A stretch of 64,000 nucleotides of DNA from Escherichia phage vB_EcoM-BECP11, in sequence record MW286157.1; one strand, written 5' to 3'. The notes beneath the pieces are model-generated. The model searched no databases. It saw only the letters and a program-made list of their open reading frames with translations, and was not told the DNA's origin. Below, piece by piece: positions 4,994 to 27,269 of this stretch (its first letter is position 1; each line of letters starts with the position of its first letter). Made by a program: the position numbers and the translations under genes.

Positions 4994-5007
4994 GGGCTTC
5001 GGCCCTT
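4992..5007 (+). promoter_or_regulatory. intercistronic RNA hairpin (UUCG tetraloop) after rIIB
   Basis: AAGGGC-TTCG-GCCCTT. Confidence 0.55.
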
Positions 5008-5021
5008 AACTAAGGAAAATT

Positions 5022-5216
5022 ATGTTAGGTTATCAAGCACGAGTAAAAGAAGAATACGATCAATTAATGCTCAAAATTAATGCACTGAGCAAATTTTTAG
5101 AAAGCACAAAGTTTCTAACAGTTAGTGCAGTTGAGCAAGAATTACTGCTTTCACAGTTCATCTCAATGAAATCTTATGCTGAATGTCTAGAGAAAAGAAT
5201 TGCACAATTCAAATAA
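5022..5216 (+). CDS. hypothetical protein (64 aa)
   Basis: ORF with RBS AAGGAAAAT, bracketed by two GGGCTTCGGCCC hairpins. Confidence 0.4.
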   Translation: MLGYQARVKEEYDQLMLKINALSKFLESTKFLTVSAVEQELLLSQFISMKSYAECLEKRIAQFK

Positions 5217-5218
5217 AT

Positions 5219-5240
5219 AAGGGCTTCGGCCCTTTTGTTT
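5219..5240 (+). terminator. hairpin with U-rich tail (terminator-like)
   Basis: AAGGGC-TTCG-GCCCTT followed by TTGTTTT; same hairpin sequence as 4992-5007. Confidence 0.5.
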
Positions 5241-5252
5241 TAAGGAAAAATT

Positions 5253-5582
5253 ATGATTTATTGTATGAATATCGGCGATTCCGACATAAAAGAGATTAAA
5301 CTGCACGGAAATCATCACGCTAATATTGTGTACTGTAATAAATTTGAGTTTGGTCACGAAAAACTTGGGTTTCTTTACTGTAATGATGTTATAGTCATGG
5401 ATAAAAAGGAGCTCGATGAACTTGACCTCGAGTCTTTAGATGAAAATGACCGAATTTATTATGGTACTCTTAAAGTATATAACGCTTATCTCGGTGGTAA
5501 AAAGGAAAGTCTAAATGCAGAAAACGAATCCGGGTTTACAGAGACTATTTCAGATTCCGACATTTACCCTATCGAACAGTGA
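5253..5582 (+). CDS. hypothetical protein (109 aa)
   Basis: ORF with RBS AAGGAAAAAT; 3' end overlaps the next ORF if that starts at 5515. Confidence 0.4.
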   Translation: MIYCMNIGDSDIKEIKLHGNHHANIVYCNKFEFGHEKLGFLYCNDVIVMDKKELDELDLESLDENDRIYYGTLKVYNAYLGGKKESLNAENESGFTETISDSDIYPIEQ

Positions 5583-6072
5583 TTTGACTAGTGAAATGAA
5601 GGTCAAAATTGCTGATACTGCGAGATACTCTTTAAAACAAAATCCAAACCAGGATAAGGCTGAGGTCATCGAAAGATGTCGTATCGCAGTGTATGCTGAG
5701 TATGTTGTAGCAGATTGGTTAAGTGGGTATGTTAACAAAGGTCAAGAAGACGTCGATGATCCGTATACATATGCATGGGATGTTTTAGCACATCCAAAAT
5801 ACTGCGGGCTTCGGGTAGAAGTTAAAACACACCAAACTGACTCTCGATGGATTTCAGTAACGACAGGACACAGCGGAGAGTATCCATACGGTTCTGGAAT
5901 AAATCTAGGGCCCATTCTAAATCATCAAGTCGCTGACTGTATAATTATATTCAACACTAAAGAAATTCATCCAGGTGTCATCCAGTACACTCCGAAGTTC
6001 ATCGGTGACAGAGAAGACCTTCGTAAGGTTGTAAGAAAAAGCAACTACAACGGATGGTATCTTTCCATTTAA
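5515..6072 (+). CDS. denB: putative endonuclease IV (DenB-like); start uncertain (alternative ATG at 5596)
   Basis: 185-aa ORF, the length I recall for T4 EndoIV, in the expected position between rIIB and ndd; assignment by length and synteny only. Confidence 0.4.
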   Translation: MQKTNPGLQRLFQIPTFTLSNSDLTSEMKVKIADTARYSLKQNPNQDKAEVIERCRIAVYAEYVVADWLSGYVNKGQEDVDDPYTYAWDVLAHPKYCGLRVEVKTHQTDSRWISVTTGHSGEYPYGSGINLGPILNHQVADCIIIFNTKEIHPGVIQYTPKFIGDREDLRKVVRKSNYNGWYLSI

Positions 6073-6091
6073 AAAATTTTTTCACAAAACG

Positions 6092-6121
6092 GTTTACATA
6101 CCACAAGGACCGTGGTACTAT
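6092..6121 (+). promoter_or_regulatory. T4-type early promoter
   Basis: GTTTAC 6092-6097, 18-bp spacer, TGGTACTAT extended -10; AT-rich UP-like tract upstream. Confidence 0.6.
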
Positions 6122-6152
6122 TACCCTATCAACTACGGAGGAGCGGAAAATG
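6111..6152 (+). repeat. promoter-leader repeat, copy 1
   Basis: CGTGGTACTATTACCCTATCAACTACGGAGGA...AAAATG, near-identical to 6617-6658; partial third copy at 27161-27180. Confidence 0.7.
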
Positions 6153-6413
6153 AAATTTAAATTTTATTACGCTAAACATAAAATAACTGATGAGTTTGTG
6201 TCAGTTGAATATTCTAGCGACGATGAAGGTATGATTTATACTCGCTTGGGACTATCGCATTGGGAGTCTGATCAGCCTTATTTTTCAACTCCTGAAGAAA
6301 TTACACGCTTAGTTAGTGGTCATATGAATGACCATTGGAATGTAATTCTTTCAGATAGTCTTAAAGCGGCTATTAATAGTAATGAAATGAAAATCGCTGA
6401 GATTGAGCTGTGA
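6150..6413 (+). CDS. hypothetical protein (87 aa)
   Basis: ATG 8 nt after GGAGGA, downstream of early promoter 6092-6121; the longer upstream ORF start reads through the promoter and is unlikely. Confidence 0.5.
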   Translation: MKFKFYYAKHKITDEFVSVEYSSDDEGMIYTRLGLSHWESDQPYFSTPEEITRLVSGHMNDHWNVILSDSLKAAINSNEMKIAEIEL

Positions 6414-6492
6414 GTTCACTATGGTGGTGTTTTGTTTGGTTAATTAGTATTCCAGTAATTTGTTTAACATTTACTTTTGTAATGAGGTTATT

Positions 6493-6591
6493 ATGAAAAT
6501 TTTGAATTCTGTACTTATTGCTTGCGCGTGGTGGGTTGCACAGGTTTCAGCGGTAGTAGTTGGTATTCACATTTATTACGAATATTTTTAA
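6493..6591 (+). CDS. predicted small hydrophobic peptide (32 aa)
   Basis: RBS GAGG then ATG; MKILNSVLIACAWWVAQVSAVVVGIHIYYEYF has one predicted TM helix. Confidence 0.35.
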   Translation: MKILNSVLIACAWWVAQVSAVVVGIHIYYEYF

Positions 6592-6597
6592 AAAGTT

Positions 6598-6627
6598 GTT
6601 TACAAGACTGTTCTTCCGTGGTACTAT
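6598..6627 (+). promoter_or_regulatory. T4-type early promoter (repeat copy)
   Basis: GTTTAC 6598-6603, 18-bp spacer, TGGTACTAT; the -10 and leader are identical to the copy at 6111-6152. Confidence 0.6.
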
Positions 6628-6658
6628 TACCCTATCAACTACGGAGGAACAGAAAATG
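6617..6658 (+). repeat. promoter-leader repeat, copy 2
   Basis: 32 of 32 nt identical to copy 1, then 2 mismatches up to the ATG. Confidence 0.7.
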
Positions 6659-6769
6659 AAAAAGATTGTTAAAGCTATATGGAATGTAGTTATAATACTA
6701 ATAGTTTTGAGTATATTCCCAATCGTTTTAATGATTGATGTATTAAACGCTTACTTTGGATTTATGTGA
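6656..6769 (+). CDS. predicted small membrane peptide (37 aa)
   Basis: GGAGGA RBS after early promoter 6598-6627; hydrophobic core VVIILIVLSIFPIVLMI. Confidence 0.45.
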   Translation: MKKIVKAIWNVVIILIVLSIFPIVLMIDVLNAYFGFM

Positions 6770-6776
6770 GGAAAAT

Positions 6777-6974
6777 ATGAAGCGTAAACGCAGTGCTTTT
6801 ACATTTATTGAATGGTTTTTCGATAATATTTTTCCGGCTTTATTCATTTTTATGCTGATTTTTGCCTTAGGTTCAGTTGTAGTTGGAATCTATTTGATGA
6901 CAGTAGTCGGAATTGATATTCATCAAAATGGTTTAAAATCTGTGGTTGAAACAATTTGGAATGGTGTAAAATGA
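6777..6974 (+). CDS. predicted small membrane protein (65 aa)
   Basis: RBS GAGGAAAATATG; hydrophobic stretch FPALFIFMLIFALGSVVVGIYLMTVVGI. Confidence 0.5.
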   Translation: MKRKRSAFTFIEWFFDNIFPALFIFMLIFALGSVVVGIYLMTVVGIDIHQNGLKSVVETIWNGVK

Positions 6975-7081
6975 TGAATTTGTTGAGCGGTTGGTTTTAT
7001 ATTCTTATGTTTTACATTGGTGCAAATTTTCCATATTGGATGGGATGGTCAACAACTGCATTCGGATTTTATACTCCTTGA
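6971..7081 (+). CDS. predicted small membrane peptide (36 aa)
   Basis: ATGA overlap with upstream stop; aromatic-rich hydrophobic sequence GWFYILMFYIGANFPYWMGW. Confidence 0.35.
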   Translation: MMNLLSGWFYILMFYIGANFPYWMGWSTTAFGFYTP

Positions 7082-7089
7082 GGTGAATT

Positions 7090-7305
7090 ATGAAAAGTTT
7101 TAAAGATGTAAAAGTTGGTGAAATTTTCTGTTTAGATAACGGTGATCAGTTAATTCGTATTTCACCTCTTAAGAGCACTAGCGAGAAACTGACAGTTAAT
7201 GCTACTTTAGCAAATAACAGTAATGAACGTTTCTGTATTGAAAATGATACTGAAACTTATACTGTAGAAGAGTTTTGGGAATTGAGCGTCGACTGCGACG
7301 ATTAA
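7090..7305 (+). CDS. hypothetical protein (71 aa)
   Basis: RBS GAGGTGAATT before ATG; followed by hairpin 7313-7332. Confidence 0.5.
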   Translation: MKSFKDVKVGEIFCLDNGDQLIRISPLKSTSEKLTVNATLANNSNERFCIENDTETYTVEEFWELSVDCDD

Positions 7306-7312
7306 TTTAATG

Positions 7313-7332
7313 GCCGCGTATTCATGCGGCCT
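7313..7332 (+). promoter_or_regulatory. intercistronic RNA hairpin upstream of ndd
   Basis: GGCCGC-gtattcat-GCGGCC. Confidence 0.5.
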
Positions 7333-7364
7333 TGGAGTAGAAAATAATTTTAGAGGAAATTAAT

Positions 7365-7823
7365 ATGAAATATATGACTGTTACTGATCTGAATAATGCG
7401 GGCGCTACTGTTATTGGTACAATCAAGGGTGGTGAGTGGTTTTTGGGAGTTCCACATAAAGACTTTTTATCTAAACCTGGATTTTACTTTTTAGTGAGTA
7501 AATTAGATGGTCGTCCATTTAGTAATCCATGTGTGTCTGCACGATTTTATGTAGGTAATCAGCGTTCTAAGCAAGGATTCAGCGCGGTTCTAAGTCATAT
7601 TCGTCAACGTCGGTCTCAGCTTGCACGTACTATTGCAAATAACAATGTTCCATACACAGTGTTTTATCTGCCTGCTTCTAAGATGAAACCTCTGACGACG
7701 GGATTTGGAAAAGGACAGTTAGCTTTAGCGTTTACTCGTAATCATCATTCTGAGTATCAAACACTTGAAGAAATGAACCGTATGTTGGCTGATAACTTTA
7801 AATTCGTTTTGCAGGCATATTAA
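7365..7823 (+). CDS. ndd: nucleoid disruption protein Ndd
   Basis: N-terminus [28 protein letters not shown] matches T4 Ndd as recalled; RBS GAGGAAATTAAT. Confidence 0.85.
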
Positions 7824-7903
7824 TGAGTAATTTCCATAACGAACATGTGATGCAGTTCTATCGTAATAATTTTAAAACTAAAGGCGTCTTCGGACGCCAG
7901 TGA
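7823..7903 (+). CDS. stp: Stp peptide (26 aa), activator of the host PrrC anticodon nuclease
   Basis: [26 protein letters not shown] matches the T4 Stp peptide as recalled; start overlaps ndd stop (TAATG). Confidence 0.8.
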
Positions 7904-7910
7904 GGAAAAT

Positions 7911-8063
7911 ATGAAATTTGTTTATGGTATAGCCTTTTTCTGCTGGTCCTTTTTATTCGCCGGAACAGTAATAACTGGAGAAACTTCAGTATTTTTACAA
8001 GCAACAGCTCAAGGCGTATTAGCAATTTTATCATTGTTTTGGCTATTAAATGAAAATGATTAA
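7911..8063 (+). CDS. ac: small membrane protein (50 aa), Ac-like (acridine sensitivity)
   Basis: position stp-ac-52 as in T4; hydrophobic 50-aa product; RBS GAGGAAAATATG. Confidence 0.55.
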   Translation: MKFVYGIAFFCWSFLFAGTVITGETSVFLQATAQGVLAILSLFWLLNEND

Positions 8064-8196
8064 GAAAATCTTGGGCTATTCATTAGCCCTTGCTACTTTA
8101 TTAGTAGCACTATATTATGGAGTAATGTTCGGATTAATTCAAGTCGTGCTTTTCATTTCTGATGTTATTATGGCACTACATTCACTAGTATGGTAA
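8056..8196 (+). CDS. small membrane peptide (46 aa), in the position of T4 52.1
   Basis: ORF overlapping ac stop; product almost entirely hydrophobic. Confidence 0.4.
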   Translation: MIKKILGYSLALATLLVALYYGVMFGLIQVVLFISDVIMALHSLVW

Positions 8197-8200
8197 ATTT

Positions 8201-9529
8201 ATGCAACTGAATAATCGCGATTTAAAAAGTATCATTGATAATGAAGCATTGGCTTATGCTATGTACACGGTTGAAAATCGTGCCATTCCAAATATGATTG
8301 ACGGATTTAAGCCAGTTCAACGATTTGTTATTGCTCGAGCTCTTGATTTGGCACGAGGAAATAAAGATAAGTTTCACAAACTCGCTTCTATTGCAGGTGG
8401 TGTAGCGGACCTTGGATATCACCATGGCGAAAACTCTGCACAAGACGCAGGTGCTTTGATGGCTAACACTTGGAATAATAACTTTCCTCTGTTAGATGGT
8501 CAAGGAAACTTTGGTTCTCGTACCGTCCAAAAAGCAGCAGCAAGTCGTTATATTTTTGCTCGTGTAAGTAAAAATTTCTATAACGTATATAAAGATACTG
8601 AATATGCTCCGGTACATCAAGATAAAGAACACATTCCGCCTGCTTTCTATTTGCCTATTATTCCTACTGTTCTTCTTAATGGTGTTTCCGGTATTGCAAC
8701 TGGTTATGCAACTTACATTCTTCCTCATAGTGTTTCTTCTGTTAAGAAAGCTGTATTACAAGCTCTTCAAGGAAAGAAAGTAACTAAACCGAAGGTAGAA
8801 TTCCCAGAATTTCGTGGTGAAGTCGTTGAGATTGATGGCCAATATGAAATTCGTGGAACATATAAGTTTACTTCACGAACTCAAATGCATATCACTGAGA
8901 TTCCGTATAAGTATGATCGTGAAACTTATGTGAGTAAAATCTTAGACCCACTTGAAGATAAAGGCTTCATTACATGGGATGATGCTTGTGGTGAGCATGG
9001 TTTTGGATTCAAAGTTAAATTCCGTAAAGAATATTCTTTGAGCGATAACGAAGAAGAACGCCATGCAAAAATTATGAAAGACTTCGGGTTGATTGAGCGT
9101 CGTTCTCAGAATATTACGGTTATTAATGAGAAAGGAAAACTACAAGTTTACGATAACGTAGTTGATTTAATTAAAGACTTTGTTGAAGTTCGTAAAACTT
9201 ATGTCCAAAAACGAATTGATAACAAAATCAAAGAAACTGAGTCAGCTTTTCGTTTAGCCTTTGCCAAGGCACATTTCATTAAGAAAGTAATTTCAGGTGA
9301 AATCGTTGTGCAGGGTAAAACTCGCAAAGAACTGACCGAAGAACTTTCGAAAATCGATATGTATTCTTCTTATGTTGATAAACTAGTTGGAATGAATATT
9401 TTTCATATGACTTCCGACGAAGCAAAGAAACTTGCTGAAGAAGCTAAAGCTAAGAAAGAAGAAAACGAATATTGGAAAACTACTAATGTAGTTACCGAAT
9501 ACACTAAAGATTTAGAGGAAATCAAATGA
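8201..9529 (+). CDS. 52: DNA topoisomerase II medium subunit (GyrA-like), 442 aa
   Basis: MQLNNRDLKSIIDNEALAYAMYTVENRAIPNMIDGFKPVQRFV, GyrA N-terminal signature; matches T4 gp52 as recalled. Confidence 0.9.
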   Translation: MQLNNRDLKSIIDNEALAYAMYTVENRAIPNMIDGFKPVQRFVIARALDLARGNKDKFHKLASIAGGVADLGYHHGENSAQDAGALMANTWNNNFPLLDGQGNFGSRTVQKAAASRYIFARVSKNFYNVYKDTEYAPVHQDKEHIPPAFYLPIIPTVLLNGVSGIATGYATYILPHSVSSVKKAVLQALQGKKVTKPKVEFPEFRGEVVEIDGQYEIRGTYKFTSRTQMHITEIPYKYDRETYVSKILDPLEDKGFITWDDACGEHGFGFKVKFRKEYSLSDNEEERHAKIMKDFGLIERRSQNITVINEKGKLQVYDNVVDLIKDFVEVRKTYVQKRIDNKIKETESAFRLAFAKAHFIKKVISGEIVVQGKTRKELTEELSKIDMYSSYVDKLVGMNIFHMTSDEAKKLAEEAKAKKEENEYWKTTNVVTEYTKDLEEIK

Positions 9530-9675
9530 GTCCATTCATAGGTATTACAAGCGCTGCATTAGTATCCGGTAGCATTTTACTGGCGGGTTTAGGTGTTGTT
9601 CCAGCCGTAGCAGGAGGTCTTCTTGCGTTCGGCATTCAACGTGTTATCATGACAGTTATCACAGTCATGCAGTAA
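9526..9675 (+). CDS. small membrane peptide (49 aa)
   Basis: ATGA overlap with gene 52 stop; Gly/Ala-rich hydrophobic product; followed by terminator 9682-9707. Confidence 0.4.
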   Translation: MSPFIGITSAALVSGSILLAGLGVVPAVAGGLLAFGIQRVIMTVITVMQ

Positions 9676-9681
9676 TTTTTA

Positions 9682-9707
9682 GGGAGAGCCTCGGCTCTCC
9701 CTTTTTT
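9682..9707 (+). terminator. rho-independent terminator after gene 52 and the small ORF
   Basis: GGGAGAG-CCTCGG-CTCTCCC hairpin followed by TTTTTT. Confidence 0.7.
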
Positions 9708-9733
9708 ATTTCAAAAATTTTTTTCACAAAACG

Positions 9734-9763
9734 GTTTACAACCAAAGCATACTGTGGTACTAT
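9734..9763 (+). promoter_or_regulatory. T4-type early promoter for motA
   Basis: GTTTAC 9734-9739, 18-bp spacer, TGGTACTAT; follows terminator 9682-9707. Confidence 0.6.
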
Positions 9764-9804
9764 ACAACTATCAACTACTGATACAGAATTACGGAGATTA
9801 GAAA

Positions 9805-10440
9805 ATGTCTAAAGTAACTTACATCATCAAAGCTTCTAACGATGTTCTGAATGAAAAAACTGCTGCGATTTTAATTACTATTGCTAAGAAAGATTTCATT
9901 ACAGCTGCAGAAGTTCGTGAGGTGCATCCAGATTTAGGTAACGCAGTAGTTAATAGTAATATTGGGGTGTTGATTAAAAAAGGCCTGGTGGAGAAATCTG
10001 GTGATGGATTAATCATTACTGGTGAAGCTCAGGATATTATTTCAAACGCAGCAACTTTATACGCACAGGAAAATGCTCCTGAACTGCTGAAAAAACGAGC
10101 AACTCGTAAAGCTCGCGAAATTACTTCTGATATGGAAGAAGATAAAGACTTCATGTTAAAACTTTTAGATGAAAATGGATTTGTTCTTAAAAAGGTTGAA
10201 ACTTATCGTAGTAACTATCTCGCTATTTTAGAAAAACGTACTCACGGAATTCGTAATTTTGAAATTAACAACAATGGAAATATGCGAATTTTTGGATACA
10301 AAATGATGGAACATCATATTCAGAAATTTACTGATATCGGAATGTCATGTAAAATTGCTAAAAACGGTAATGTGTATCTTGACATTAAACGCTCGGAAGA
10401 AAACATTGAAGCAGTAATCACTGTAGCATCTGAACTGTGA
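9805..10440 (+). CDS. motA: MotA middle-transcription activator (211 aa)
   Basis: MSKVTYIIKASNDVLNEKTAAILITIAKKDFITAAEVREVHPDLGNAVVNS matches T4 MotA as recalled; preceded by early promoter. Confidence 0.9.
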   Translation: MSKVTYIIKASNDVLNEKTAAILITIAKKDFITAAEVREVHPDLGNAVVNSNIGVLIKKGLVEKSGDGLIITGEAQDIISNAATLYAQENAPELLKKRATRKAREITSDMEEDKDFMLKLLDENGFVLKKVETYRSNYLAILEKRTHGIRNFEINNNGNMRIFGYKMMEHHIQKFTDIGMSCKIAKNGNVYLDIKRSEENIEAVITVASEL

Positions 10441-10450
10441 GGAATAAATA

Positions 10451-10780
10451 ATGAACAAGTTAGAAATTATCAATGAACTTCGTCGTTGTGCAGAACCTAC
10501 TCAAGAGGGTTGGGATATTTGGTACCATGGAGCTTATCTTGGAACTATTGTAAAGATTAAGACTGGTAAATACATGATTATTCGTGAAAGTAAAGATGCT
10601 CCAGTAGGTATTCGCAATAATTTCATGGCAGCGATAAGTTCCTTTACAGATGCAGCTTACGAAATTTACCTTGCCGATTATAAAGAATTCCAGGAATCTC
10701 AACCAGTTATTCGCTCAATTGGTGTTAACAAAGCTCAACAGAAAACTTTGTGGCAACGTATTAAAGGATGGTTTAAATGA
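10451..10780 (+). CDS. hypothetical early protein (109 aa)
   Basis: RBS GAGGAATAAATA; in the motA-to-arn early block. Confidence 0.5.
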
Positions 10781-19211: not shown

Positions 19212-22200
19212 TTATTCAACCCATTCAAATTTAACAGTTTTATTCACTGGGTCAGGAATAATGCGAACATTACCAATTCGTAAGAAATCACGAATAGTAA
19301 GATTACCCATTGTAGCATTATCAGATGGTAAAGCACCGATATCAGACGGTTGAGGAGGGTTACCTCCATCAAATACCTGAACAAAACTTGACCAAGAATT
19401 TTTGGTTTTCTGCCATGTACGTGTCCAGCGAGTGGTACGCGCTTCTGGCGTCGTTGGATAAGTAATCCAATCTTGGTAAAGCGAATCAAGTGTGTTACCA
19501 AACTGAGTCAGTGTACCAGGAGATTTAACTTCTTCGCCACGTTCTAAATATGGAAGACCAGTCACTTCATTAGTTTTTTCAACCATTTTAAAATAACCTG
19601 GGAACTGGTTATAAGTAGCTGAATCGTTAATATCAATTGACCAGAATCCTACAGTATCAGATGTTGGCGCACGTGTATATAAGTCAGATGTTTTAGTACC
19701 TTGAGAACGAATTCTCGAGTTAACAGTCAAACCACCTGAATTTATAGTAGCACCTTTGGCAATGATTAAGCCTTCACCAATCGTTACTTGGCCAGATGCA
19801 TTATTAATAGCTAATGGGCGTAATCCATTAAATCCACCAGTCTGATCACCCGATGCAGTAAGCATAAAATTCGTTACTGATCCATCATTGCGAACAATGA
19901 AACCGTAATTTCCGTTAATAGCACGGAAAGCATTTGCGCTTCGAGAAATAATTTCACCAGTTGCAGTGACTGAATTACCAAATGTTGCTACGCCATTTGC
20001 ATTCAATGTTCCTGAAGCATTAACATTTATCGGTGTTACTGTACCGTTGATATTAAATGTTATATTTCCGGCTTTATTGCGCTGAGAATAAAAATGACTA
20101 GATGTTTCATCACTAACTTCAAATACGGTAGAACGTGTTGTATCTAATTCCCCACTAAATTGATTTCCCCACACTCTAACAGTCATCGTTTGGGCTGGGT
20201 TTGTTCCAGTTTGAGGTCCTTTCTCAAAAATCAATCGAGTTGCTGTTCCAGCATTAGAAATAGTTAATGTACTATTTGCTGAAACTGATCCACCGAACGT
20301 AGCAGTACTAGATGATACAAGAGGGGCACTCAGATTCGTTTGTTGAGTTAAGGTTAGTGAACCATTAACCGTCTGCGCAATATCCCTACGAATGAACTGA
20401 GATGAATCTAGACCATCCAATAAATTACTATCTGCAGCTTTTGCTTTTAATGGCAAATAATTTGCTAATACACGGTTTAATTCATATGGTGATACTGCAT
20501 AGCTATTTTTCTCGTATAGCTCTAAGTCCTGAGTAGAACCGGCTGTATCATTACCAACGAATGTAATTGAACCAGATGAAGTTTTAACAAAGCCTCTTAC
20601 TGCAGTAGTAGCTGCCCAAGTAGGTTCACTCTGCACAATCCATTTTAAATTTTTTGGAGATACAGCAGTATTTGCCGATGTTCCAGCAACAGTTTCGGTT
20701 TGTGTTGCAACTTTAATAACACCTTCTTGTGCTTCAGTAGATTTAGTACCTAAAAGCTTTTTAGGAGTTATTAAAACATTATCTAATTTTCCAGCAGCAG
20801 CTTCAACTTGTGTAGCCACACGAAGTGTACCACGTTGTGTCTCATTTGCTTCAAGAATATTAAGGGTATAATGGTCCCAGAGAGTTCCTGATTCAACTAA
20901 TCCAGATAGAGCAACAACAGAAGTACGATCAGTACTATTAAATCTAGTTTTAATTTTTAATGGTGTAGAGATACGAGTATCGTCGACGCCTGCGTCGAAT
21001 TCAACTTGTGTAGCAATTTCAGCTATACCACTTAAACTTTCAGTTGCTCTACGGTCATTTAAAGTTTTAGGAGTGACTGCACGAGTATAATCAGTTCCTG
21101 TATTAACTTCACTTTGCGTAGCAATTTCAATTAAACCAATTCTTCCATCAGTTGATGTCTTTTTGTGTAACGTTTCTGGCGTTACAACCGCATTTGCCCA
21201 TCCTTCTTGACTTTGACCAGCAATTACTTCACTTTCAACTGCTAAAATTACTGCACCTTGCTGTGTTGGAGTAGCTTTATACTGATCCAAGGCTTTAGGT
21301 GAAACAACTAAGTTATTGGTGTTTTTATTATAAACATTCGTACCATTTAATTCGCGGCTAGAAGCTGGAGTAGCTCCTGCAGTAGATACAAAAGTTACAA
21401 TACCAGATAATGATTCAGAACCTTGGCGAGCTTGAAGCTTTTTAGGAGTGATGATTGTCGTATCATCGGTTCCTGCATTAGTTTCTTGCTGCGTAGCAAT
21501 TTCGGCAACACCTCTGCGAGTTTCAGTAGCTGTTCTTTCATTCAGCTTTTTAGGAGTGATGATAATATCATCAGCAAAAGAGAATGTAGTATCCTGGTTA
21601 ACTTGAGCAGTAGTTGCTATTCTTGCAATACCTCTACGAGTTTCTGTAGCAGTACGATTAGCTAACGTTTCTGGAGTAATTGCCAGTTCTTTTTGTGGAG
21701 AATTTTCTAGATCAGCATTAGCTTGAGCCTGTGTAGCTAAAGCAATTACGCCTAATCTTGCTCTAGTAGAATTATTTAAAGAGTCTACTCTTTCTACAGT
21801 TGGAACATTTTGCTGTACAACCCAATATTTTCCATCGGAATCTTCGATATAAGCAAGCTGTAAAACTGGAACATAATTGGTTTCGCCATTAAAAACTAAT
21901 TCTTGAACAGTCACCCATTTAGTTTCAGGTGGGTATTCTGAACGTTTTGGAAATTGCAGCAATTGAACTGAAGAAGCAATTTTATCTTCACCGGCAGCTT
22001 TGATTTTAACTGTTTGTCCTTTTCTCATATAATTCATGGAAATCTTAACAGTATCACCGATAGAAATATCAGTTGGAAGCTGAAGTTCAATTGTTTGGGT
22101 TGTTCCATTATTCGCGCCAAATACCATGACTTCTTCATTTGGACGAATATTAGAATTAGTCGTTATAATGCGTAAACGTGCTTTACTATCCCCGTCAAAC

Positions 22201-27200: not shown

Positions 27201-27269
27201 ATGTTCGCACCTTATATTATGGCAGCAGTTATGTTGGTCTGTTTATATCTTTTGATTAAAGCTTGCTAA
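27201..27269 (+). CDS. possible micro-ORF, hydrophobic peptide (22 aa)
   Basis: ATG after GGAGAAAAGAAA, downstream of early promoter 27141-27170; MFAPYIMAAVMLVCLYLLIKAC. Confidence 0.25.
   Translation: MFAPYIMAAVMLVCLYLLIKAC

Follow-up and report, generated by a model that had tools for sequence, protein, structure and literature searches.

Five conserved ndd micro-genes of a T4-like Escherichia phage, probably encoding accessory single-pass inner-membrane micro-proteins

AcrZ, MgrB, MgtS and KdpF are single-pass peptides of 30–50 aa that each bind a specific larger membrane protein; the E. coli small proteins AcrZ, MgrB and MgtS tune host inner-membrane machinery by such binding. Among phages, HK97 achieves exclusion through gp15, which spans the inner membrane once and whose escape mutants fall in the tape-measure protein, and T4 already owes exclusion to Sp and to Imm, a small membrane protein that excludes superinfecting phage. 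The T4 D region, which is variable and shuffled by way of promoter cassettes (PMC4122927), holds a further set of very small genes beside ndd.

The DNA analysed here (64,000 nt of Escherichia phage vB_EcoM-BECP11, record MW286157.1; hereafter the window) is that of a T4-like phage, a Tequatrovirus. On sequence comparison, its segment 6493–7081 corresponds to the T4 genes ndd.5, ndd.4, ndd.2a and ndd.2, which are already annotated in the T4 reference (Table 1). A sequence-only reading of the window had described this segment as a tandem array of four small ORFs; all four exist, with 6971 or 6974 as the start of the last, but a fifth member, ndd.6, was overlooked, so that the array comprises five micro-genes. 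T4 (NC_000866, T4p270–T4p275) carries these genes in an identical order, preceded by denB and followed by ndd.1 and ndd, at about 97% nucleotide identity. BECP11 differs from T4 in three respects: ndd.2a is intact; ndd.6 starts with GTG; and an 87-aa ORF lies between denB and ndd.6, whereas T4 lacks this ORF and retains an 8-codon remnant (MKIAEIEL and a stop) that keeps an ATGA overlap with ndd.6. Given the T4 reference annotation and the PHROG and Pfam membership of the ndd ORFs, the five are genuine genes but previously known, and constitute no new finding.

Table 1. Positions of the array, its flanking genes and promoter cassettes, and other small ORFs in the window.
Feature	Position	Strand	Product or content	Family or match
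Early-promoter cassette, copy 1	6068..6139	+	ahead of 87-aa ORF, ndd.6 and ndd.5	
87-aa ORF, RB14ncORF269c / RB69ORF270c-like	6150..6413	+	87 aa, soluble	phrog_2390
ndd.6	6410..6496	+	28 aa, hydrophobic, GTG start	phrog_8851, E 1.6e-17
ndd.5	6493..6591	+	32 aa, MKILNSVLIACAWW...	phrog_5011, E 3.6e-26
Early-promoter cassette, copy 2	6574..6645	+	ahead of ndd.4, ndd.2a, ndd.2, ndd.1 and ndd	
ndd.4	6656..6769	+	37 aa, MKKIVKAIWN..VLSIFPIVLMID..	phrog_3098
ndd.2a, full length	6777..6974	+	65 aa	Pfam DUF7248 (PF23906), 68 bits vs cutoff 27; phrog_2401
ndd.2	6971..7081	+	35/36 aa, ..FYIGANFPYWMGW..	phrog_4135, E 1.7e-24
ndd.1	7090..7305	+	71 aa, acidic, soluble; GRAVY -0.47, net charge -8	phrog_2183
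ndd	7365..7823	+	nucleoid disruption protein; downstream synteny anchor	annotation of homologous records
ac	7911-8063			PHROG match
52.1	8050-8196			PHROG match, Pfam DUF7396
motA.1	9526-9675			PHROG match
22-aa ORF	27201-27269		in frd.2-frd.1 spacer	unannotated in records examined

The claim that such ORFs are routinely missed by annotation holds for public records, in which coverage is uneven: in the closest record, PV857777, ndd.6 and ndd.4 are absent, and several others are short of between one and three genes. It does not hold for the T4 reference, which has ndd.2, ndd.2a/ndd.3, ndd.4, ndd.5 and ndd.6. GenBank labels such as “outer membrane protein”, “periplasmic protein” and “naphthalene 1,2-dioxygenase” were rejected as prediction or propagation artefacts; an outer-membrane, periplasmic or lipoprotein class was likewise set aside from the sequences, as the peptides are 28–36 aa long (65 aa for Ndd.2a) and essentially one hydrophobic helix. 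A lipobox-like L-I-A-C occurs in Ndd.5 only, after a 10-residue leader, and the stretch that follows it is hydrophobic too.

The description of the products as single-helix hydrophobic peptides was borne out: Kyte-Doolittle profiles give one hydrophobic stretch each (best 19-residue mean 2.17 for Ndd.5, 3.06 for Ndd.4, 2.71 for Ndd.2a and 1.17 for Ndd.2). All five peptides match PHROG families over their whole length (E 1.6e-17 to 3.5e-29). The window contains seven ORFs of 25–70 aa that combine a Shine-Dalgarno sequence with a transmembrane-grade segment, against 1.06 +/- 0.98 expected from 100 dinucleotide shuffles of the window, and a same-strand cluster of three small hydrophobic ORFs within 600 nt arose in none of 100 such shuffles.

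Absence from related phages was part of what the sequence-only reading had named as speaking against its proposal; instead, the block is present in about 490 Tequatrovirus records at 93% identity or more and has homologues in other genera. Among 23 genomes the ORFs are unbroken in 21–23, and changes fall mainly at third codon positions (1/1/10 at codon positions 1, 2 and 3 for ndd.5 and 8/5/26 for ndd.2a). The pN/pS ratio is 0.12 for ndd.6, 0.08 for ndd.5, 0.085 for ndd.2a and 0.09 for ndd.2 (0.08–0.12 overall), compared with 0.6 to 9 in alternative frames of these genes; for ndd.6, the two other frames give 0.62 and an undefined value (no synonymous changes). Within Tequatrovirus, ndd.4 shows 9 changes at a pN/pS of 0.64, too few for judging selection, so the case for this gene comes from comparison between genera, where uncorrected pN is 0.24 against a pS of about 0.7. 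Protein homologues of Ndd.4, Ndd.6, Ndd.2a and, more weakly, Ndd.2 occur in Dhakavirus, Gaprivervirus, Kanagawavirus and Winklervirus, and between genera the protein is conserved despite near-saturated synonymous change. The micro-genes are under purifying selection. Gene order from denB to ndd is kept in T4, RB14 and 20 other Tequatrovirus loci; the homologues in the loci read, including those of MX01, JS10, SP18, IME523 and CHI14, are placed between denB and ndd. A scan of viral contigs returned 5 loci, all near-identical.

The array is divided between two polycistronic units, each preceded by one copy of an early-promoter cassette from a 72-nt direct-repeat family (copies in the window at 6068, 6574 and 9710). 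Copy 1 has TTTACA and TACTAT separated by 17 nt, a TG before the −10 hexamer and the leader CCTATCAACTACGGAGG, with a promoter-like site at 6093–6121; the site in copy 2 lies at 6599–6627. In T4D (record X75802), promoters are annotated at two sites here, before ndd.6 and within the array, and Dhakavirus phages, IME523 and Serratia phage CHI14 have the same promoter-plus-leader layout ahead of their ndd.4 homologues. Starts in the array have either a Shine-Dalgarno sequence (GAGG for ndd.5) or an overlap with the preceding stop codon: the 87-aa ORF runs into ndd.6 through GTGA, ndd.6 into ndd.5 through ATGA, and ndd.2a into ndd.2 through ATGATG. These overlaps, together with the Shine-Dalgarno sequences, suggest translational coupling; a start of ndd.6 over the upstream stop is also seen in JS10, SP18 and IME523. 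Downstream, ndd.1 shares the early transcription unit of ndd.4, ndd.2a and ndd.2 and encodes no membrane peptide. A 119-aa form of the upstream ORF (6054–6413), taken from a mechanical list, was rejected as over-extended, for it runs through the promoter.

Each peptide has features of its own. Ndd.4 is the member with the widest conservation: a search with a profile of its homologues gave 28 matches, nearly all 37–43 aa long (the exceptions being three of 69 aa and one of 62 aa) and nearly all bearing a precomputed PF26889, with Escherichia, Shigella, Enterobacter, Edwardsiella, Pectobacterium and Serratia as hosts; its conserved motif is KAIWN..SIFP..MID. Ndd.6 is marked by WC..SIP.IC and starts with GTG in BECP11 but with ATG in all 22 further genomes of the comparison, and its homologues in JS10, SP18, MX01 and IME523 start with ATG, GTG or TTG. 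Ndd.5 consists of an N-terminal MK, one hydrophobic helix with the pattern A12xxxA16xxxA20xxxG24 and the tail HIYYEYF; no homologue beyond Tequatrovirus was found among the matches listed. Ndd.2 has no charged residues, is 34% aromatic and conserves N-F-P-Y-W-M-G; of its two possible start codons, the second ATG alone is conserved in relatives. Candidate homologues of Ndd.2 are IME523 gp152 (shared motif, by eye) and a Klebsiella phage protein (E 0.009).

Ndd.2a carries a KRKR N-terminus, a transmembrane helix and the conserved tail NGLKSVVETIWNGVK. AlphaFold2 predicts an almost entirely helical protein (helices 3–17 and 19–64; mean pLDDT 80.6), and a search of solved structures up to E 1 yielded nothing related to Ndd.2a or Ndd.4. 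In a family alignment of 22 sequences, G52, K54, W61 and G63 are invariant; the membrane helix varies freely, whereas the tail GLKxVVExIWxG is nearly invariant. Natural in-frame chimeras join the Ndd.2a tail to the membrane helix of Ndd.4 or Ndd.5. The same combination of variable helix and conserved tail characterises DUF7248/PHROG 2401 (47–76 aa), with members in T4-like phages of Serratia and Shigella and in metagenomes; a word-indexed protein search with Ndd.2a returned close relatives, truncations and chimeras only. One metagenomic DUF7248 member adjoins a putative DNA cytosine methyltransferase (by eye), so the family may extend past T4-like phages. Genes ndd.4 and ndd.2a co-occur in three genera, Tequatrovirus, Gaprivervirus and Winklervirus. 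In T4, a 1-nt deletion breaks ndd.2a into “ndd.3” (26 aa) and “ndd.2a” (40 aa), and a T2 stock carries a nonsense codon in the gene; as the common laboratory T4 has a broken ndd.2a, T4 experiments are uninformative on it. A literature search by the gene name ndd.2a gave no match.

The Ndd.2a tail, GLKSVVETIWNG, resembles a single tape-measure repeat unit, GMKSVVETIWQG (10/14 identical). A search with a profile built from Ndd.2a sequences alone recovers tape-measure proteins (E 1.2e-6 to 2.5e-4) in which the repeats match the tail, and PF10145 was confirmed in two of them; in tape-measure proteins with this domain, the repeats come after hydrophobic segments, as does the Ndd.2a tail. With 65 aa, one repeat-like unit and no PF10145 domain, however, Ndd.2a is not a tape-measure protein and has the motif alone in common with them. 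Reciprocally, DUF7248 scores these proteins at about 18 bits, under its cutoff of 27. Outside T4-like phages, the matches listed are nearly all tape-measure genes from phages that infect Gram-positive bacteria, with no coliphage among them; the query for that search, a synthetic two-unit tail with a tape-measure-like linker, is biased and shows only where the repeat occurs. Within BECP11, Ndd.2a alone has the motif, which is absent from the other ORFs. The likeness may reflect convergence on an amphipathic helix. It is improbable that Ndd.2a is an inner-membrane-anchored, periplasm-facing copy of a tape-measure repeat that disturbs genome delivery by other phages or engages a repeat-recognising host protein, with the other ndd peptides acting as similar single-target decoys; if true, this would establish a class of phage exclusion micro-proteins that is widespread yet unrecognised.

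The sequence-only reading also pointed to similar tiny membrane ORFs elsewhere in the window. Three of these, ac, 52.1 and motA.1, are T4 genes with PHROG matches, and the fourth, at 27201–27269, is unannotated in the records examined. Ac, gp52.1 and MotA.1 are hydrophobic products of 48–50 aa from the same region as the ndd peptides; neither they nor Imm have sequence similarity to these peptides, and among the four a phenotype is assigned to Ac (acridine) and Imm only.

The sequence of BECP11 contains the early-promoter cassettes; the early class itself was measured in T4, where transcripts of the ndd micro-genes are so classed (PMC9697503 Table S2). The micro-peptides were undetected in the accompanying time-course shotgun proteome (PMC9697503 Table S2), whereas Ndd.1 was detected as an early protein (PMC9697503). 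In our assessment, tryptic shotgun mass spectrometry is ill-suited to such small hydrophobic peptides; a literature search for T4 ribosome profiling found none. The deletion sa-delta-9, which runs from 52.1 through denB and includes ndd.1–ndd.6, still allows a phage yield at 50% of wild type and loses the stimulation of phosphatidylglycerol synthesis, the sole phenotype mapped to the region (PMC6071114). Among the genes it takes out are denB, ndd, stp, ac and 52.1, and a denB-deficient multiple mutant, in which dCTPase and Alc are missing as well, shows no stimulation either (PMC6071114). By CRISPRi-ART, ndd.2 to ndd.6 were scored “Not Fit” (PMC11879866 supplement), which we take to mean that knockdown leaves fitness unchanged. 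Deletion or knockdown of the array is tolerated in laboratory E. coli.

Our analysis identifies the array as the T4 D-region set, which probably encodes single-pass inner-membrane micro-proteins that bind partners and serve as conditional accessory modules. Each product is predicted to span the inner membrane once, and for Ndd.5, Ndd.4 and Ndd.2a the basic N-terminus is predicted to be cytoplasmic and the short C-tail periplasmic. Given the peptide-specific motifs and the variable Ndd.2a helix with its near-invariant tail, specific contacts with envelope partner proteins are most likely, rather than bulk membrane damage. The peptides would be separable modules with no core role in host takeover, useful only under particular conditions: when other phages compete, against host defences linked to the membrane, or in certain hosts or physiological states. 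This putative mode of action is likened to that of AcrZ, MgrB, MgtS and KdpF; partners are known for the bacterial regulators, and searches of Pfam and NCBIfam show no homology of the ndd peptides to them. Nor did matches in Pfam, NCBIfam or PADLOC lend support to the roles suggested by the sequence-only reading, namely superinfection exclusion, membrane depolarisation and inhibition of host transporters.

There is some chance that the peptides are instead modulators of host physiology, tuning transporters, lipid-synthesis enzymes, proteases or sensor kinases in every infection and, in the case of one or more of them, underlying the T4-induced phosphatidylglycerol stimulation. The early transcripts agree with this, motifs specific to each peptide would suit defined partners, and sa-delta-9 both abolishes the stimulation and halves the yield (PMC6071114). 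However, the lipid phenotype is unmapped to any ndd.x gene and is shared by the denB-deficient multiple mutant (PMC6071114); single knockdowns have no fitness effect; and patchy presence among related genera is not what a core takeover function usually shows. Such patchiness, like neutrality in laboratory strains, would suit counter-defence, in which the peptides neutralise membrane-embedded abortive-infection or other defence effectors by analogy with the neighbouring rIIA/rIIB, which counter RexAB. The neighbours rIIB, denB, ndd and stp lie in the same variable, cassette-shuffled region (PMC4122927), and ndd.2a has been lost in long-propagated T4 and a T2 stock. We nevertheless consider counter-defence rather unlikely: no anti-defence family was matched; the one suggestive hit, a weak match of Ndd.4 to a membrane-spanning segment of KwaA from the Kiwa system (PADLOC, E 0.008), was rejected as what chance gives for a hydrophobic helix and five queries; and the main texts of two phage gene-function papers, the HIDEN-SEQ preprint and the anti-defence screen of Ojima et al., do not mention the ndd micro-genes.

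Superinfection exclusion, a role that the sequence-only reading had raised and in which chiefly Ndd.2a, as an anchored copy of a tape-measure repeat, would stop entry of a second genome, is unlikely. Early transcripts, a predicted periplasmic tail, dispensability in single infection, patchy distribution and the tape-measure repeats found by the Ndd.2a profile are what it would lead one to expect, with HK97 gp15 as precedent. Against it, the matches listed outside T4-like phages (from a biased query) come almost wholly from phages of Gram-positive hosts and include no coliphage, the motif in BECP11 is confined to Ndd.2a, DUF7248 scores tape-measure proteins under its cutoff, Pfam, PHROG and PADLOC give the ndd peptides no family match to known exclusion proteins, and T4 is already equipped with Imm and Sp. 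Very improbable, in turn, is a pore-forming or depolarising action, type I toxin- or holin-like, that harms the host membrane. Size, hydrophobicity and a single helix are compatible with it, and the small-xxx-small ladder of Ndd.5 (A12, A16, A20, G24) is of the kind seen in self-associating helices; but the genes are transcribed within the first minutes of every infection, and T4 requires an energised membrane after the early phase. Moreover, conservation extends to specific motifs beyond mere hydrophobicity, no toxin or holin family was matched in Pfam or NCBIfam (the latter gave no match at all), and Rfam has no family in the array or in 5000–10500 and no antitoxin-type RNA there, with chance-level matches only elsewhere. 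That the ORFs are accidents of T-rich DNA, which easily yields Phe, Leu and Ile, or a non-coding RNA or promoter spacer, is barely conceivable: the failure of mass spectrometry to detect the peptides (PMC9697503) would fit, but third-position polymorphism is confined to the annotated frames, the ORFs stay unbroken in nearly all of the 23 genomes, the protein is conserved between genera where synonymous sites are near-saturated, count and clustering exceed those of shuffled sequence, and Rfam is silent in the region.

In conclusion, as a discovery the array is minor: the genes are annotated in T4, belong to PHROG and Pfam families, and are listed as of “unknown function” in recent genome-wide T4 studies. 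They nonetheless give the best-studied lytic phage five membrane micro-proteins that are conserved and transcribed early, and the comparative data give experimental handles on them: the constrained residues, the broken ndd.2a of T4, the joint recurrence of ndd.4 and ndd.2a, and the tape-measure-like tail.

The micro-ORFs between denB and ndd.1 are already known genes: they are phage T4 ndd.5, ndd.4, ndd.2a and ndd.2, found where the sequence-only reading had put a tandem array of four, although the array has a fifth member, ndd.6, that this reading lacked. Profile match and synteny make them members of the T4 Ndd.x families; each of the five peptides matches a PHROG family, and Ndd.2a also falls in Pfam DUF7248. 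About 500 Tequatrovirus (T4-like) phages match the region, the closest being Escherichia phage Ec_O157kw (99.4% identity); T4 is about 97% identical, its minus strand corresponding to the plus strand of the window. The local order is rIIB, denB.1, denB, the small ORFs, ndd.1, ndd, stp, ac, 52.1, gene 52, motA.1 and motA, and cassette exchange via promoter elements is known to concentrate here (PMC4122927). denB.1 (5744-5938 in T4 NC_000866; window homologue upstream of 5253) matches Pfam PF21825, labelled 'crAss001_48 related protein' in the local library but 'Sequestin' in the precomputed annotation.

Coordinates of the array, its neighbours, the promoter cassettes and other small hydrophobic ORFs
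Feature	Position	Strand	Length
candidate small ORF	1933-1817	-	
denB	5515-6072		
cassette copy 1	6068-6139		72 nt
87-aa ORF	6150-6413	+	87 aa
ndd.6	6410-6496		28 aa
ndd.5	6493-6591		32 aa
cassette copy 2	6574-6645		72 nt
ndd.4	6656-6769		37 aa
ndd.2a	6777-6974		65 aa
ndd.2	6971/6974-7081		36/35 aa
ndd.1	7090-7305		
ndd	7365-7823		
cassette copy 3	9710-9781		72 nt
candidate small ORF	14674-14570	-	
candidate small ORF	21451-21606	+	
putative ORF, frd.2-frd.1 spacer	27201-27269		22 aa

In a hydropathy scan, one hydrophobic stretch dominates each of the five peptides, in agreement with the single-helix character first proposed; the best 19-residue hydropathy is 2.2-3.1 in four of them and 1.2 in Ndd.2, which is 34% aromatic and has no charged residue. 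The AlphaFold2 model of Ndd.2a has helices at 3-17 and 19-64 (mean pLDDT 80.6). Clustering of such micro-ORFs exceeds chance: the window has seven small ORFs that combine a Shine-Dalgarno sequence with a transmembrane-grade segment, vs. 1.06 +/- 0.98 in 100 dinucleotide shuffles, none of which placed three within 600 nt. Ndd.5 also shows a lipobox-like L8-I9-A10-C11, preceded by only a few leader residues, and along one face of its helix a small-xxx-small ladder (A12, A16, A20, G24); neither feature varies among the 23 aligned genomes. Elsewhere, the putative hydrophobic ORF in the frd.2-frd.1 spacer (MFAPYIMAAVMLVCLYLLIKAC) immediately follows an early-promoter cassette and a GGAG Shine-Dalgarno. 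T4 has it unchanged, none of the records examined annotates it, and T2 lacks it cleanly owing to an indel of roughly 85 nt, which fits the many records that cover only about 70-85% of this query. A whole-window scan gave the three candidate small ORFs of the table, each of which pairs a Shine-Dalgarno-like sequence with a segment of strong hydrophobicity.

Alignment of the block from 23 genomes (93-99.6% identity) identifies the ORFs, on comparative sequence evidence, as real genes under purifying selection. Each ORF is unbroken in at least 21 of the 23 genomes, and in all 23 at most; only in the annotated frames does polymorphism fall mostly at third codon positions; and pN/pS is 0.12 for ndd.6, 0.08 for ndd.5, 0.085 for ndd.2a and 0.09 for ndd.2, compared with 0.6 to 9 in the two other frames of these genes. 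ndd.4 has 9 changes within the genus (pN/pS 0.64), a variation too low to judge selection. The end of ndd.6 carries a 2-nt insertion in one metagenomic phage, and phage a51 has a 12-nt deletion at the ndd.2a/ndd.2 junction. Of the 23 genomes only this phage starts ndd.6 with GTG, the other 22 having ATG; for ndd.2 the first ATG reads ATA in several relatives, which leaves the second as the conserved start. Taken together, coding-frame constraint, intact ORFs, cross-genus homologues and the absence of any Rfam family within the array exclude both chance ORFs and a role that is purely non-coding. Conservation in relatives, whose absence the sequence-only reading had named, along with that of translation, as refuting its proposal, holds within the genus and, for most of the array, beyond it.

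Judging from the homologues found, ndd.4 is the most widespread array member, with clear relatives in Dhakavirus (MX01, JS10, UP19), Gaprivervirus (SP18), Kanagawavirus (IME523) and Winklervirus (Serratia phage CHI14). Across these genera uncorrected pS is about 0.7 (synonymous sites near saturation) and pN 0.24, and the motif K-A-I-W-N ... V-L-S-I-F-P-I-V-x-M-I-D persists. Searching with a profile built from these homologues returned 28 proteins, nearly all of 37-43 aa and carrying the precomputed Pfam label PF26889, the named sources being phages of Escherichia, Shigella, Enterobacter, Edwardsiella, Pectobacterium and Serratia. JS10, SP18, MX01 and IME523 also have Ndd.6 homologues, which start with ATG, GTG or TTG; in JS10, SP18 and IME523 the start overlaps the upstream ORF stop. 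Ndd.2a homologues occur in SP18 and CHI14; candidates for Ndd.2 are an IME523 ORF recognised by eye from a common motif and a Klebsiella phage match (E 0.009); and Ndd.5 had no match outside Tequatrovirus among the rows inspected. ndd.4 and ndd.2a recur jointly in three genera, as the distant CHI14 keeps the common layout of early promoter, Ndd.4-like ORF, DUF7248 ORF and ndd.

The T4 genes 'ndd.3' (26 aa) and 'ndd.2a' (40 aa) together represent a single 65-aa DUF7248 gene that a 1-nt deletion immediately behind the ATG has broken in two; NC_000866 and T4D record X75802, which is independent of it, share the deletion. In T2 stock PV958097 a nonsense codon interrupts the gene at Gly45. Neither standard laboratory T4 nor this T2 stock can therefore report on ndd.2a function. 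Natural in-frame deletions join the Ndd.2a tail, the conserved segment after the membrane helix, to the membrane helix of Ndd.4 in Shigella phage Sf25 gp120 and to that of Ndd.5 in T4 derivative MZ375356; these chimeras fit a putative shared orientation and anchor-plus-tail design. A five-sequence Ndd.2a profile found 27 matches among 1.84 billion representative proteins. About 22 are 47-76-aa proteins with a highly variable N-terminal hydrophobic helix and a nearly invariant tail, G-L-K-x-[VI]-[VI]-E-x-[IV]-W-x-G, in which G52, K54, W61 and G63 are invariant across 22 sequences; most have a basic N-terminus, and therefore the N-terminus is predicted inside and the tail outside. Four matches are 820-976 aa long, and both of those tested carry the tape-measure domain PF10145, with tandem repeats that match the tail (e.g. 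GMKSVVETIWQG vs. GLKSVVETIWNG). Pfam DUF7248 scores about 18 bits on these proteins against a cutoff of 27, and the reverse test is weak. Among the matches listed for a deliberately repeat-like synthetic query, nearly all tail-motif matches outside T4-like phages were tape-measure genes, from phages of Gram-positive hosts; among this phage's own ORFs the motif occurs in Ndd.2a only. We take this likeness as a lead, a resemblance at the level of the motif, and do not claim homology.

The three 72-nt cassettes (72-78% identical) have TTTACA, a 17-nt spacer, TG before TACTAT and the leader CCTATCAACTACGGAGG, which by sequence is the T4 early-promoter form; in T4D record X75802 two promoter sites are annotated here, one in front of ndd.6 and one within the array. 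Copy 1 would drive the 87-aa ORF, ndd.6 and ndd.5, and copy 2 ndd.4, ndd.2a, ndd.2, ndd.1 and ndd; copy 3 sits ahead of motA. Cassettes of this type have been proposed to mediate shuffling among T4-like genomes. Mechanical ORF calls run through the cassette and give over-long forms of the 87-aa ORF (119 aa) and ndd.4 (69 aa), the latter present in some public records too. GAGG or GGAGG Shine-Dalgarno sequences precede ndd.5, ndd.4, ndd.2a and ndd.1; ndd.6 and ndd.2 lack one of that strength and their starts overlap the preceding stop, while the ndd.6 stop overlaps the ndd.5 start. The soluble 87-aa ORF ends ...KIAEIEL* over the ndd.6 start (window 6395-6413). T4 lacks this ORF and has an 8-codon one (MKIAEIEL*) with a strong Shine-Dalgarno; this remnant keeps the ATGA overlap, which suggests that ndd.6 may be translated by coupling to the preceding ORF.

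The proposal that such genes are missed by annotation is only partly borne out: annotation is patchy, but ndd.2, ndd.2a, ndd.3, ndd.4, ndd.5 and ndd.6 already have entries in the T4 reference genome, where their products are predicted to be membrane or periplasmic. As GenBank labels, 'outer membrane protein' and 'periplasmic protein' are unfit for 28-36-aa peptides made of one hydrophobic helix, and 'naphthalene 1,2-dioxygenase' on Ndd.4, Ndd.2 or Ndd.1 in several GenBank/RefSeq records is an obvious propagation error. A time-resolved T4 study found early ndd.2 to ndd.6 transcripts with their proteins undetected, and detected Ndd.1 and Ndd early (PMC9697503 Table S2). The literature searched assigns no function to any of ndd.2 to ndd.6.

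We consider it likely that these are membrane-inserted, partner-binding peptides with conditional accessory roles. They would insert into the inner membrane in the opening minutes of infection, the Lys/Arg-rich N-termini of Ndd.5, Ndd.4 and Ndd.2a probably staying cytoplasmic, and may bind specific envelope partners rather than damage the bilayer, because each peptide conserves its own short motif and in the Ndd.2a family constraint is confined to the tail. Conditional accessory roles, with phage competition, membrane-linked defences or particular hosts as candidate settings, are suggested because the genes are patchy among genera, lie in a cassette-shuffled region next to rII, are neutral in laboratory hosts and decay in old laboratory stocks. 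Pore formation seems very improbable. Superinfection exclusion is a doubtful alternative, and Pfam, NCBIfam and PADLOC profile searches matched none of the five peptides to a toxin, holin, exclusion or defence family; no solved-structure relatives of Ndd.2a or Ndd.4 were found at E up to 1. Counter-defence is also improbable. The PADLOC match of Ndd.4 to a transmembrane stretch of KwaA (Kiwa; E 0.008, 13.8 bits) probably reflects chance between hydrophobic helices.

Modulation of host physiology is possible, if unlikely. The T4 deletion sa-delta-9 takes out 52.1, ac, stp, ndd, ndd.1-ndd.6 and denB; the mutant still produces phage, at half the wild-type rate, but the deletion abolishes T4-induced stimulation of phospholipid (phosphatidylglycerol) synthesis; its authors describe the ndd.1-ndd.6 products as unknown and report that a denB-deficient multiple mutant likewise lacks the stimulation (PMC6071114). 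Genome-wide knockdown scored ndd.2, ndd.2a, ndd.3, ndd.4, ndd.5 and ndd.6 all 'Not Fit' (PMC11879866 supplement), which we read as knockdown without fitness effect in the laboratory host; by these T4 data the genes are dispensable under laboratory conditions. The interest of the array lies in what its peptides do and in the DUF7248 tail with its likeness to tape-measure repeats.
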